DNA from: Eledone cirrhosa | Lineage: Eukaryota | Direction of reading: 5' to 3' | Length of the DNA: 64,000 nt | Assembly: GCA_964016885.1 (NCBI GenBank) | Contig: OZ024743.1 | Coordinates: 343,728,001 to 343,792,000, forward strand | In this document: positions 2,207 to 50,085 of the stretch, one piece after another | Layout: each line of letters starts with the position of its first letter | Position numbering within the stretch: position 1 is the stretch's first letter | Notes under the pieces: model-generated | Seen by the model: only the letters and a program-made list of their open reading frames with translations | The model's database searches: none | Told to the model about the DNA's origin: nothing | Position numbers and translations under genes: made by a program

Positions 2207-2735
2207 ATGTAAGTATGTATGTATGTATACGTACATACATATATGTATACAGACGTACAGTAGTATGTATATATATATACATACATGCACACATATATAT
2301 ATGCACGTATCGGTTTACCGAACATTTATTATAATGCTCGGTTTGTTTGTTTGCAAACAGCCGTTAATATGCATAAGGAAAGTATATACTTTCAGACGTT
2401 CAACCATCTGGCAGGAAGGTATACGATGCTGACGATAGCTAATAAGCTTGAAACTAGTACATCGTTCCTGTGTCAGTGTTGAACAAAAAGGTGACGTGGA
2501 TGCCTAAACACTGTACGGCGTAATTCGGGCTGTTTGTTTGTTTACAAACAAACCGAGCATTATAATAAATGTTCGGTAAACCGACACGTGCATATATATA
2601 TGTGTGCATGTATGTATATATATACATACTACTGTACGTCTGTATACATATATGTATGTACGTATACATACATAAATACTTACATTTAAGTAAGTGCCGT
2701 ATTAAGAGTGAGAAATGAAATTTCGTTTCATTCTA
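2207..2735 (+). mobile_element. Family A hammerhead-bearing non-autonomous element with an inverted 5' segment, flanked by (TA)n and (TC)n
   Basis: 2207-2360 is the reverse complement of about 2530-2690; same family at 14765-15185, 26694-26965 and 46775-47750. Confidence 0.8.
2424..2464 (+). ncRNA. Type I minimal hammerhead ribozyme (family A)
   Basis: cgatg-CTGACGA-t agct aata agct t-GAAAC-ta-GTA-catcg: perfect stem I, stem II hairpin, palindromic ACTAGT in stem III, GUA site. Confidence 0.88.
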
Positions 2736-2816
2736 TTCTCTCTCTCTCTCTCTCTCTCTCTCTCTCTCTCTCTCTCTCTATATATATATATATATATATA
2801 TATATATATATATATA

Positions 2817-3910
2817 TGAAAGACGTAAAATAAGAAAATTATAAAAATTAACTTACTTACTAAAATTTCACTCCAACTAATTAGTTTCTGAAAGGGAATA
2901 AACATGGTTTCCGAATGGAACAACATGGAGAATGCCTTTCGTCATCAGGAAGTCAATTCTCAGCTAAGTTCCCAGGCGATGCGTGGACACAGGGAACTTA
3001 TACAAAAATAATTCAGTGGATGGAAAAAAGCAAGCGAGGACTAAATTCCAAGACATTGAAAAAATCACTGCCTACTTGGTCGGTGGCAAATTCAAAAGAA
3101 TCAATCACGTGACATCGAGGTTAATCAGTGAGGAGTGGGGTGTTAAGAAGACAATAGCCGAACTATTACTATGAACTATAGTAGCAGTTTTGGCAAATTT
3201 TTGCTCAACAAAATAATTTGGAGTTAATTATAAAGAATTAGTATATCTACCAACATATATATACATATGCATACCTATGCTAGCAAATATATAGGTTTTG
3301 TCTTAGTAACTTTGTGGTTCAATGTAAGGGGATGCAGAACAATTATATGAAAGACGTAAAATAAGAAAATTATAAAAATTAACTTACTTACTAAAATTTC
3401 ACTCCAACTAATTAGTTTCTGAAAGGGAATAAACATGGTTTCCGAATGGAACAACATGGAGAATGCCTTTCGTCATCAGGAAGTCAATTCTCGATGTCAC
3501 GTGATTGATTCTTTTGAATTTGCCACCGACCAAGTAGGCAGTGATTTTTTCAATGTCTTGGAATTTAGTCCTCGCTTGCTTTTTTCCATCCACTGAATTA
3601 TTTTTGTATAAGATCCCTTTGTCCACGCATCGCCTGGGAACTTAGCTGAGAATTGACTTCCTGATGACGAAAGGCATTCTCCTTGTTGTTCCATTCGGAA
3701 ACCATGTTTATTCCCTTTCAGAAACTAATTAGTTGGAGTGAAATTTTAGTAAGTAAGTTAATTTTTATAATTTTCTTATTTTACGTCTTTCATATAATTG
3801 TTCTGCATCCGCTTGCATTGAACCACAAAGTTACTAAGACAAAACCTATATATTTGCTAGCATAGGTATGCGTCTGTATATATATGTTGGTAGATATACT
3901 AATTCTTTAT
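2817..3910. mobile_element. Family B non-coding element: partial tandem (period about 531 bp) plus inverted copy, with imperfect hammerhead cores
   Basis: Sequence at 2817 recurs at 3348; 3491-3910 is inverted; CTGATGA-cgaa..ttcg-GAAAC at 3661-3702 (+) and mirrored twice on the - strand, but stem I pairs poorly. Confidence 0.7.
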
Positions 3911-4467
3911 ATATATATATATATATATATATATATATATATATATATATATATATATATAATAAAGAAACCATTATTTTATATATTTTTACCAAGAGGG
4001 TTAATGCCCGATGGCTAAAAACGACTTCCCCGCCCTTTTTTTAAACGCCAGCCGACAAAATAGCCCCTCTACCTCCTCCCCACCCACCTCTAACCCTCCT
4101 CAACCTGAAACACGGCACTATGGTTATGTAAGTACCTCTTACCTATCTGCATTTTCTGCTTGTAGAGTTGTTTTTATGTGCCTGTGTATATGCGTATATT
4201 TATGAGTACAATGAGTGGCCGTTCGTTTGTATGCATATCGCTGTGTGTACGTGCGTTCACATGTACCTGCATATGGTGTGTATGTTTGTGTATATATATA
4301 TATATATATGTATATGTGTATGTATATATATATATATGTATGTGTGTGTATATATATATATATATATATATATATATATATATATATATATATATATGTA
4401 TGTATATGTATGTGTATGTATGTGTATATGTATATATATATATATATATATATATATATGTATATGT

Positions 4468-4830
4468 ATCATCATCATCAGGTTTAGCGTCCGTGTTCCA
4501 CGCTTGCATGGGTTTGGACGGGGGTTTTCCCACTTGAGGCAAGAGTGGTTGTCTTGCTCGCATAGGACTGTCTGGCGGGTTTTCTACAGTTGGATGCCCT
4601 TCCTAACACCAACCACATTTACAGTGTGGGGCTGGGAGGTTTTTACCGTGTTGCCTACACGGCCACATTACAGCGTGGACTGTCTGGCAGGGTTTTCTAC
4701 AGCTGGATGCCCTTCCTAACACCAACCACATTTACAGTGTGGGGCTGGGAGGTTTTTACCGTGTTGCCTACACGGCCACATTTACAGCGTGGACTGTGTG
4801 TTTTTTGTCGTGACACCTACACGATCTCAT
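4468..4830 (-). mobile_element. RTE-type 3' end or SINE tail with an internal tandem duplication of about 112 bp
   Basis: Minus strand has aggaagggcatccagctgtagaaa and a (TGA)n tail; ggactgt recurs at 4565, 4677 and 4791. Confidence 0.55.
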
Positions 4831-5060
4831 TTGTTTCGGCCTGGATGTTGTGGGACCAACATAACTTTACATTGAAAGGGGCGGTGTGGGTGGGGTGGAG
4901 GTGGTGGGTATGTATATTTGTATATGTATGTGTATATTTATATATATATATATATATATATATATATATATATATATATATATATATATATATATATATA
5001 TATATATATATATATATATATATATATAAGATCAAAAGATGGTTAAAGGAGTTCCATGTA

Positions 5061-5127
5061 TTTTATTATGCGCATTTCAAAAACAAACATCATTATGCAA
5101 TAATATTTGTGTTTTCATCAGATAAAA
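5061..5127 (-). ncRNA. Type I hammerhead ribozyme (mirror of 5194-5260)
   Basis: Exact reverse complement of the 5194-5260 motif. Confidence 0.8.
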
Positions 5128-47750: not shown

Positions 47751-47975
47751 ATATATATATATATATATATATATATATATATATATATATATATATATAT
47801 ATATATATATATATATATATATATATATATATATATATATATATATAATATATATATAAATAAAATGATAGTCCTGGCTTCTATTTCTAATTCTCCATTT
47901 TATTTATACATCACATATGCAACAACACAGCACGCCATTTTTCATTCCTATATATATATATATATATATATATAT

Positions 47976-48111
47976 ACCAGATGGACCATAACACACCAGA
48001 GTACTCAATACTTAGGGTAGTAGAGTGGGTAATAGGAAAATATTTAACTCTGACGGCAGAGCTCAAGCCGTCGAAACGGCTTGAGCTCTGCCGTCGGGGT
48101 TAAACATTTTC
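47976..48111. mobile_element. Family F fragment with fold-back next to GAAA
   Basis: aagccgt-cgaa-acggctt centre; GAAAC-ggcttgagctctgcc-GTC-gggg. Confidence 0.7.
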
Positions 48112-48194
48112 ACACACACACATATATATATATATATATATATATATATATATATATATATATATATATATATATATATATATATATATATATT

Positions 48195-49680
48195 TATCCC
48201 GGGTTCAATCGGGTGTAACCACAGTAAGTAAGGTACTCAATACATGTCTCCGCGAACACCTCGCCAAAATGGAACGTCTACTCTTCAAGTTCCTTTGGAA
48301 GAAACAGGCTTCCTTTGGAAGAAATTGGTGAGGCGATCGTTCTGCTGCCAACAACATTTCAACGGAAGGCTGGGCATGCGGTGGCTGATGATGCACAAAG
48401 ACCCGCTGAGGTTACGCCATCTCCAGGTATTCCTGACCGGTGAACCGGTGTGGTGGTAATTTGTGAGACAAGCTTTTCTGCAACTCGTCTCGCTAACGGA
48501 ACTTCAATCCTAGGTCAAGCGAAGACCGAAAATGGGCGCCTGGCACCTCGAGTAAACCCAGGCGCTCACAGTCTTCTATCAGGCGGACACGGCAATCAGT
48601 GTAGACTCCACGTCAACACTCTATAAAGGGTTAGTAGAGGATAAGTGCGACGACGTTCTCGGGGAGACTCTAGGCGTCGAATAGGATGAACTGACCAGTC
48701 TGTTCGGGAGGTATTTCCGTCCAGGATCTATGGATAACTTCCAGAGGTCTCTGGCCTGGCAGTGCTACCGAGAAACTCTACCAATTCGAGACAAGATCTA
48801 CAGGCACGGACGCCCTGGCAGGGATCCTGCCGAAAGGATCTGTCCAAGATGCGAGTGGGACATTGAAACCGTTCTGCACGCAATTGTTCAGTGCCCAGGG
48901 GTGGCTGACCTGTGGAACTATGTCGAATAGCTACTGTCACGTGTGGGACAAATCCAGTTGACAGCCAAGTCCATCGTGAGGATCACGCCGCCACCTTCAT
49001 TTAAAAACGAAGGAGAAGCGGTTTTCCTCTGTCTGGTGGCTATGGCGAAAGAGGTAATATGGTGGACGAGATTAAAAGGGCTGAGGACAGACACCTTCCT
49101 CTCCGGACAACTCATTCGCTTCTTTAAATACCACTTCACAAGGAAAATGACAGTAGAAGGTGAGGTGCTGCACCCCAGTAAATTCGCTGAAAAGTGGGTG
49201 AATATAGCGAAAATAGCCCGAGTGATTGGGCCTTTGCTGTATATAAACCTGTAGGTTGACGAAGACGAACGAGAGAAGACAGGAGCACTTACAAAACATG
49301 CTCTTGGAGTTGAGTGTGGTTCTATATAAGGGGTGTAAAACAACCTAATTGTAACGTTCCCCCTATTGGGAATTTCGATTGTTATTTATTATTTTATAAA
49401 TGTTAAAACTTTTGTTTACAGGCTTAAATGTAAAATCCCCGCCATACATTCTGTAATGTCCCATTTCTTGTGCGCCCTTTTGGCAAATATCTATCTATCT
49501 ATCTATCTATCTATCTATCTATCTATCTATCTATCTATCTATCTCCCTCTATTGGGGAAAATCGATTAACTTTTAAATTGCATTTGTGATAATATTTTAC
49601 GCGTTTTTATTGTATGTAAACTGCACCCTTTGTATTTGTCCCCTTCTTTTGTGCCCTTGTGGCTAATAAAGAAACATATC
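48195..49680 (+). mobile_element. 5'-truncated L1/Tx1-clade LINE (decayed ORF2 C-terminus to 49254) with duplicated 3' end and (TATC)n tails
   Basis: FKFLW..GRLGM, WQCYRETLPIRDKIYRHG..CPRC..ETVLHAIVQCP. Confidence 0.85.
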
Positions 49681-49998
49681 TATCTATCTATCTATCTATC
49701 TATCTATCTATCTATCTTCTGAATGCTATTGGTGCTTTGTTGTTGTTATCATTGTTGTTCTTGTCTGAAGGTAGATTCATTAGTAAATATACATAAATCG
49801 ATAGCTATAGATAGACAGGTAGGTAGGTAGATAGACAGTCAGATAGAGAACTAAATAGATATACAGAAAGATGGAGTGAAAGAGAGAGAGAGAGAGAGAG
49901 AGAGAGAGAGAGAGAGAGAGAGAGAGAGAGAGAGAGAGAGAGAGAGAGAGAGAGATAGAGAGATAGAGAGAGAGATGCTTTGTCATTACAACAGCAGA

Positions 49999-50085
49999 GG
50001 TCCGACGAGCTTTTTATTCCAGAATCGGGCCAGATCGATACAGATATCGAACCTTGAGCTGATCAATAGCGAAACGCGCGTCACC
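49999..50085 (+). ncRNA. Hammerhead-like motif with C at position 4 and long stem II
   Basis: ggt-CCGACGA-gct..agc-GAAAC-gcgc-GTC-acc, then aataaa. Confidence 0.6.

Follow-up and report, generated by a model that had tools for sequence, protein, structure and literature searches.

The 64,000-nucleotide window analysed here (Eledone cirrhosa, assembly GCA_964016885.1, contig OZ024743.1, forward-strand positions 343,728,001 to 343,792,000) contains many type I hammerhead ribozyme folds flanked by (TA)n. With a probability of roughly 85%, we regard these folds as the 3'-terminal hammerheads, in the pseudo-long terminal repeat (pLTR), of Penelope-like elements (PLEs), mainly of Hydra and Neptune type, joined by three retrozyme families that likely share their enzymes. 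The PLE-derived folds are short truncated insertions in (TA)n, often arranged head-to-head. By origin, 9 of the 20 intact folds belong to PLE ends and 7 are of retrozyme type, in three families of tandem units without an open reading frame (ORF); for the other 4 no parent element was found in the genome loci examined. An earlier note on this DNA had explained the folds as non-coding, non-autonomous elements mobilised by Naiad PLEs.

Hammerhead folds and their parent elements

The 20 intact folds are the union of two descriptors, and in each of them the core boxes, the UH and the three stems follow the type I order. Two more folds are plausible (11884-11923 and 5696-5769), and about 11 further copies are mutated or truncated. 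The first descriptor required stem I, CUGANGA or UUGANAA, stem II with a basal mismatch tolerated, GAAA, stem III and UH. With it, the window yielded 13 folds, while 30 local dinucleotide shuffles averaged 0.13. In the second, stem II was folded with ViennaRNA, and 16 folds with a C3-G8 core were obtained against 0-1 per shuffle (15 shuffles). The comparison with dinucleotide-shuffled controls that the earlier note had suggested came out clearly in favour of the C3-G8 folds. However, the 2 U3-A8 folds did not exceed chance by themselves (0-2 in shuffles), so that their support comes from genomic homologues. Among 19 hammerhead coordinates that had been named, 16 are intact folds (2423, 5059, 5192, 6608, 12245, 14886, 17593, 17992, 22348, 23498, 23704, 41820, 44503, 44611, 45181 and 47532), whereas three are degenerate copies by eye: 17295 has surplus A's in loop III, 42975 an insertion at stem III and a stem I of 2 bp, and 49999 the core change U4C. 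Four intact folds (2870, 3401, 3656 and 45635) had been missed. The core given as CUGANGA does not apply to 44503 and 44611, which have a U3-A8 core (TTGAAAA). An AATAAA, said to follow often, was seen by eye close behind the cleavage site at about nine sites and is lacking in families A, B, D, H, J and L. The (TA)n flanks were confirmed, and self-comparison grouped the motifs into about 17 families, many of them occurring as head-to-head pairs between TA tracts; that there are many families had been stated correctly. An Rfam scan of the window gave no hammerhead family among the matches listed (150 of 329), which were dominated by microRNA-like matches on hairpins.

According to Craig et al. 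(2021; PMC8557442), the Hydra clade is defined by RWK, DKT, a CxCX5C linker, no CCHH and a C-terminal endonuclease, carries canonical hammerheads and inserts into (TA)n; Hydra-1_Obim has a hammerhead. By its motifs, a broken reverse transcriptase (RT) frame of this clade lies at 9333-11747 (- strand; RWK and DKT within 10143-11747). It belongs to a family that elsewhere has open 927-codon frames (L256, L257), in which a single ORF places RT before an endonuclease of GIY-YIG type at the C-terminal end and carries RWK, DKT, the linker CNCRDRGRC, and CDLC and CTH as CxxC and CxH around E/N, with no CCHH; Pfam gave no match on the Hydra frames. The inverted 3' end of this element (11748-11979, +) contains the plausible U3-A8 hammerhead at about 11884-11923, with a short stem I. 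Family F is a 5'-truncated Hydra PLE (17947-21310, -) with RT and C-terminal GIY-YIG (19206-20980) and a CxCx5-type linker; its frame 19206-20183 is the endonuclease without CCHH. Its 3' part consists of a 3' untranslated region (UTR) of about 1.15 kb, the fold at 17992-18047, AATAAA and (TA)n. The fold lies 1.15 kb behind the stop codon, and the same 3' end was found in 25 of 30 endonuclease loci. The related family F2 (17271-17470, -) has the near-complete fold 17295-17351. Family E (12201-13516, -) is the truncated 3' UTR of a Hydra PLE with an intact fold at 12245-12311; of 30 loci, 16 have a Hydra endonuclease upstream of it and in the same orientation. Family G (21916-22485, +; fold 22348-22398) is likewise a Hydra 3' end: its fold and tail continue directly into an RT frame (L185, L261), so that G as a non-autonomous unit was rejected. 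RWR/DKT motifs occur in both G and F. The 3' UTR of G also holds a long TG/TA tract in which nested insertions collect (L212, L213, L261), and the element thus carries its own target. Family C forms a head-to-head pair (5029-5388; folds 5059-5129, -, and 5192-5262, +) with the short end at the left and the long tail at the right, and a Hydra endonuclease was seen 978 nt upstream in one locus (L092). Family P is a pair cut within the motif (26451-26671), one genomic copy of which lies 965 nt behind a Hydra endonuclease. By eye, P (also L064:8060-8230) has a CAGAAGA (U4A) core, a 5-bp stem I, a 4-bp stem III and a non-palindromic 9-nt loop, and could be a monomer-type variant. The second plausible fold (5696-5769, -), with a U3.G8 core and a palindromic loop III, was traced to no family. 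Another very young PLE family (L301-L325; 97-99% protein identity, 150 scored of 23,853 candidates) carries a minimal hammerhead about 400 nt behind the stop codon with a loop III of 2 nt.

Families K, D and N are probably of Neptune/Nematis type, judged by DKG, a CX2-5CxxC linker, CCHH and a C-terminal endonuclease, all of which were seen in K. The K pair (44431-44787) is a Neptune-type 3' end with U3-A8 folds at 44503-44540 (-) and 44611-44648 (+), and in 23 of 30 loci the motif lies 0.6-1.4 kb behind a frame with DKG, CX4CxxC and CCHH. A DNA search with K gave no candidates; the link to the frame came through protein. Many open 775-codon frames of the K-family PLE exist in the genome, and it may therefore still be active. 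Related to K are a degenerate copy (44827-45054, -; about 44877-44912) and a pair with a mutated GAAA box (45887-46197). Family D occurs as a head-to-head pair (6398-6953) with an intact fold at 6608-6650 (-) and a G8A-mutated one at 6765-6807 (+), and as a copy with a short inverted arm (17470-17839, +; intact fold 17593-17635). It is the 3' end of a PLE with a CCHH-type GIY-YIG endonuclease; the endonuclease frame is upstream in L062, L088, L214 and L267, and the class of D comes from this endonuclease and from the linker, which was also seen. A fixed 5' start of D at a YY1-like motif was rejected, for D extends upstream into that frame. The D-related family N (15610-16200), a head-to-head pair whose folds at 15843 (-) and 15965 (+) have damaged stems I/III, also follows a CCHH-type endonuclease. 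The families therefore cannot be described as non-coding elements in general: 6 of the 12 with intact folds are 3' ends of autonomous PLEs that were truncated at insertion.

Family H is a head-to-head pair (23317-23859; folds 23498-23577, -, and 23704-23783, +), and family I (41518-42006, +) has a fold at 41820-41864 with a 3-bp stem I. Family L is a pair (45605-45818) in which the fold 45635-45672 (-) is intact and 45683-45720 (+) carries G5U. Family M is present as a copy with a U4C core (49976-50125, +; 49999-50085) and a second mutated copy (23952-24083, -), while its other genomic copies keep the canonical core. Two further repeats resemble these families in part. Family Q (27008-27196, 44208-44392 and 47977-48111; 73 BLAST matches in the loci examined) is a very common element and mostly a hairpin joined inside an apparent long stem II; a possible 3' half, GAAA-stem III-UC, is present and the 5' core was not seen. 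Family S (25362-25545) is a recurrent head-to-head element with short and long ends, and no hammerhead was found in the copies examined.

Insertion footprint and conservation of the fold

Full-length copies show, behind the hammerhead, a short 3' end, then a tail of 70-100 nt that equals the start of the 5' UTR, and then the ATG; this order of pLTR, tail and ATG was seen in L224, L225, L185 and L227. A short end was combined with a long one in 35 of 37 head-to-head pairs with exact anchors (eight families) and in 86 of 89 by BLAST (six families), where about half would be expected if the arms chose their ends independently. The BLAST count leaves out the K rows, whose reference was contaminated by TA repeat; the rows of F2, H and N (7 pairs) were uninformative since no tail was present in their references, and a few rows of D and P are open to doubt. 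This near-constant pairing suggests that the two target strands were primed at two different RNA sites. The short-end arm reached further 5' in 43 pairs and the long-end arm in 10, with 33 ties. An origin of the inverted arm by folding back of the long-tail complementary DNA (cDNA) was considered; the usually greater 5' reach of the short-end arm speaks against it. A different RT-start site for each strand would be new solely in being counted. Just behind the short 3' end, a short hairpin (ACTC...GAGTRC) is present in the tails of C, G, L, Q and M and in the 5' UTR of F (L224), and it is a candidate recognition or RT-start element.

The pairing of the stems is kept while their sequences differ, in accordance with the earlier note: across 23 clusters, each found in at least 2 loci, all four pair types occur at each stem I position, although stem I pairing is partly built into the descriptor. 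Loop III had 22 different sequences in these clusters and was self-complementary in 21 of 23, with G.U and a central odd base allowed; the descriptor demanded an end pair and 50% self-complementarity, no more. Self-complementarity of loop III is a published signature of cleavage as a dimer, and the ribozymes are predicted to cut as dimers. For several of the motifs, energy folding backs stems I and II. All 23 clusters kept UH and the catalytic core, and C3-G8 was exchanged pairwise for U3-A8 in several families. Mismatched cores stayed at shuffle level in the genome sample described below (C3-A8, 2; U3-G8, 5). The joint exchange of the 3-8 pair, together with this background level, points to selection on the active fold.

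It is conceivable, if somewhat unlikely, that the folds are real and inert here, the motif having been kept as a protein-binding or joining signal of the PLE RNA with cleavage irrelevant. An anole PLE can insert without cleavage, and no RNA ends were found at its cleavage site (Frangieh et al., 2024, PMC11167929). Furthermore, the 5' ends of truncated copies cluster at the ribozyme's 5' edge in G and P, at quasi-palindromes and not at the cleavage site (in G, truncation points 423-433 against a cleavage site at about 470), and several copies have core changes. However, a mere signal would not readily account for the conserved core and UH, the joint 3-8 exchanges or the background level of mismatched cores. 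An inert motif is compatible with the structural part of our explanation, in which the folds are PLE 3' ends and retrozyme units.

Retrozyme-type families, genomic number and a proposed mechanism

Families A, B and J consist of ORF-less units, each with one type I hammerhead and a GC content of 0.33-0.35; the longest ATG frames are 137 codons in A (a unit with a long TA tract), 65 in B and 57 in J. By these unit features (short, ORF-less, tandem and low in GC) they appear to be non-LTR retrozymes. The family A unit of 482-520 bp, which has an internal TA tract, is represented at 2303-2736 (+; fold 2423-2465, short inverted arm 2303-2359), at 14752-15150 (+; fold 14886-14928) and at 46767-47704, where a truncated fold at 47064 (-) accompanies an intact one at 47532-47574 (+). 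The copy at 14752-15150 is 99-100% identical to copies on many chromosomes, and tandem arrays were found in L110 (seven 482-bp units) and in L137-140. The locus of family B (2818-3911; unit about 531 bp; folds 2870-2953, -, 3401-3484, -, and 3656-3739, +) is a partial tandem with an inverted arm, and a partial tandem was also seen via L068. Family J (45115-45483, +), a 5'-truncated copy of a tandem unit of about 767 bp, has a fold at 45181-45305 with a long branched stem II and is in partial tandem elsewhere; a degenerate J-related copy (42805-43190, -) contains a damaged fold at about 42975-43101. The explanation as non-autonomous tandem retrozymes fits these three families and fails for all families taken together.

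Upstream of the core, at a distance of 87-99 nt, family A carries an octamer-like motif (ATGCAAAT). Three hammerhead families that are distinct in sequence have it as well, and a fourth has a variant of it. Such sites were located in the 14805 and 47444 regions of the window, the distance being 87 nt in the copy at 14752-15150, and at L064:3337, L073:7732, L075:9421 and L072:3145. Newt satellite 2 has a promoter of the small nuclear RNA (snRNA) type with an octamer.

A, B and J could also have spread chiefly as satellite DNA, by unequal crossing-over from PLE-derived ends and not through RNA, as has been published as a proposal for vertebrate retrozymes. We consider this improbable. The long uniform array in L110 and the J matches in large repeated blocks of one chromosome would agree with it; however, near-identical A copies are scattered over many chromosomes, are 5'-truncated and inverted head-to-head, and end at fixed TA sites like PLE insertions.

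The earlier note had the folds in all families belong to independent non-autonomous self-cleaving elements moved by a Naiad RT/GIY-YIG. Its Penelope-type hammerheads in (TA)n were confirmed. Its choice of driver was not, since the PLE frames of the window have a C-terminal endonuclease and Hydra motifs. Naiads target (TA)n, Naiad consensus sequences from cephalopods exist, A, B and J have no ORF, and within the window the insertions look short and non-coding, all of which would suit that proposal. However, Craig et al. (2021; PMC8557442) describe Naiads as having an N-terminal endonuclease, no canonical hammerheads and remnants in cephalopods, whereas full hammerheads are present here. No Naiad feature (N-terminal GIY-YIG, DKA) was found in the linked frames, into which 6 of the 12 intact-fold families run; in all of these frames the endonuclease is C-terminal and the RT motif is DKT or DKG. 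The search baits included no Naiad protein, and Naiads may still have a role for A, B or J. A Naiad driver is very improbable overall; in C, D, E, F, G and K it is in large part refuted.

The genome was sampled in 60 stretches of 10 kb at even spacing (599,800 bases in total, 39 of the stretches from the four largest chromosomes). This sample contained 55 C3-G8 folds, with a bootstrap range of 34-79, while the four shuffles had 1-2; one array supplies 7 of the 55, and the descriptor misses G-type folds. With the same descriptor the density is 1 per about 11 kb in the sample and 1 per 4 kb in the window, which is about 2.7 times richer. Extrapolation from these ~600 kb suggests roughly 160,000-390,000 hammerhead folds in 3.0 Gb, and a very large genome-wide number was therefore rightly anticipated. 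The rate of one per 2 kb holds solely for 2.4-50 kb with degenerate copies counted; it does not hold for the whole window, and the genomic density is about five-fold lower. U3-A8 folds numbered 17 in the sample against 2-7 in shuffles, 7 of the 17 coming from one AT repeat, while the 35-base core of family G has 8,740 exact genomic copies against 0 for the reversed pattern. Chance folding in AT-rich, microsatellite-rich DNA might explain the U3-A8 folds of the window and part of those in the sample, at chance level or from one AT repeat as they are, but it is refuted for the C3-G8 set by the two shuffle comparisons (16 against 0-1, 55 against 1-2) and the G core, and its likelihood as a general explanation is negligible. 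Published counts, made with other descriptors, amount to as many as 120,000 for axolotl and some 5,000 for mussel; for Schistosoma, coelacanth and Xenopus, Cervera and de la Peña (2014, PMC4209133) give about 2,000-9,000 minimal motifs per genome. With a genome of 3 Gb and an intact-looking hammerhead every 11 kb or so, the axolotl figure would be exceeded. At that density many introns and UTRs would bear potential self-cleavage sites that are unlisted in Rfam.

Several points weigh against assigning the folds to Hydra- and Neptune-type PLEs and retrozymes that share their enzymes. The clade assignments follow motifs, and the parent links of C and P come from one locus each. No parent was found in the genome loci examined for H, I, L, M, F2, Q and S; a link of M to an endonuclease was rejected because a different hammerhead belongs to that endonuclease. 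For A, B and J, which were likely copied by the same enzymes as the PLEs, we infer the driver. Only 4 of 8 family A pairs fit the simple short/long test, even if 7 of the 8 have arms with differing end sites. The minimum-energy folds of F, E and J differ from the hammerhead, and the dimer energy gains of 3-12 kcal/mol were computed without a shuffled control, so that hammerhead activity is something we infer. In print, minimal PLE hammerheads cut weakly, dimers included; 8 of 9 Xenopus retrozyme dimers showed no cutting; and the anole motif needs protein and is dispensable for insertion (Frangieh et al., 2024, PMC11167929).

We propose that a dimeric RT-endonuclease would cut both strands of (TA)n, and that each cut strand would be primed at one of two adjacent RNA sites. 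Both cDNAs would stop early, and microhomology, often within the palindromes of the ribozyme itself, would join them 5'-to-5'. With every insertion, TA tracts would be added that turn into new targets, resulting in nests of insertions. The palindromic loop III would limit cleavage to tandem transcripts, from which unit-length or circular RNA would be released, and most single genomic copies are probably dead on arrival. A more far-reaching interpretation is possible, and we hold it tentatively: that the largest ribozyme complement among published counts is present here, a few hundred thousand hammerheads with several per cent identical young copies; that a general two-site priming of PLEs, so far undescribed, lets a dimeric enzyme with one RNA turn cut (TA)n into two-armed inserts with a short and a long end; and that an octamer-driven, TA-carrying retrozyme superfamily moves as self-cleaved circles. 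If true, the retrozymes of that superfamily would ride PLE machinery.

Other repeats also occupy the window. A dispersed repeat of about 185 bp resembling a short interspersed nuclear element has more than 10 copies, sometimes head-to-head, including 13616-13953, 14419-14639, 24130-25206, 29254-29732 and 58055-58560. GGT/GAT-rich degenerate satellites cover about 12 kb in total (29858-35295, 57157-59449 and 59515-63993). Fragments of non-LTR retrotransposons lie at 368-1022, 37776-40558 and 48198-49487, with zf-RVT at 570-944 and 39637-40032.

Relation to known systems

Already in print are hammerheads in PLEs, the U3-A8 core, the targeting of (TA)n and a Hydra element from octopus; a literature search for cephalopod hammerheads gave Craig et al. 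(2021; PMC8557442) as the sole relevant source. The elements are mostly of known kinds and their discovery value is modest; scale and mechanism matter, and the interest lies in the high number and a testable end rule. As described in that paper, Hydra-clade PLEs including Hydra-1_Obim share with ours RWK, DKT, CxCX5C, no CCHH and the C-terminal endonuclease. They also share (TA)n insertion, inverted truncated copies with the tail at one end only, and a 3' hammerhead in which a basal U.U in stem II and a palindromic stem III are common. However, one octopus Hydra family and few families overall are reported there, whereas many were found here, with tens of thousands of endonuclease candidates (58,885 at first look). 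It is also different in that 3' UTRs range from 0.3 to >2 kb, stems II extend to about 120 nt, tails measure 70-100 nt and one Hydra family has a U3-A8 core, Hydra-1_Obim being compared by its description alone.

The Neptune/Nematis-type PLEs treated in PMC4209133 resemble family K in DKG, the CX4CxxC linker and the CCHH endonuclease; hammerhead pairs on opposite strands, spaced by 100-700 bp, and a majority of truncated single motifs are found there likewise, as is, in Schistosoma PLEs, the U3-A8 core. The numbers per genome differ, about 2,000-9,000 with a different descriptor against an estimated 160,000-390,000 here. Metazoan non-LTR retrozymes, in Cervera and de la Peña (2020, PMC7229834), are ORF-less tandem units like A, B and J; there and in Li et al. 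(bioRxiv 10.64898/2026.07.22.740005) they also share the low GC (33-35%) and the single type I hammerhead and sit beside autonomous PLEs. However, the units of A, B and J, known here from DNA alone, measure 482-767 bp against the usual 150-450. Unlike those retrozymes they have an internal TA tract of their own and PLE-like head-to-head insertion, and in A-type units an octamer-like motif precedes the core by 87-99 nt.

Hydra- and Neptune-type families that are young and have open frames, together with the strict short/long end rule, turn both the completion of PLE insertion and the driver enzyme of animal retrozymes into directly testable questions. In the anole Poseidon PLE studied in vitro (Frangieh et al., 2024, PMC11167929), the tail is delimited by a pair of adjacent RT start sites, as it appears to be here, both strands of an AT-rich target are cut and extended, and a dimer is predicted. 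However, no difference in start site between strands was reported for that element, whereas the genomic pairs described here use one site per arm.

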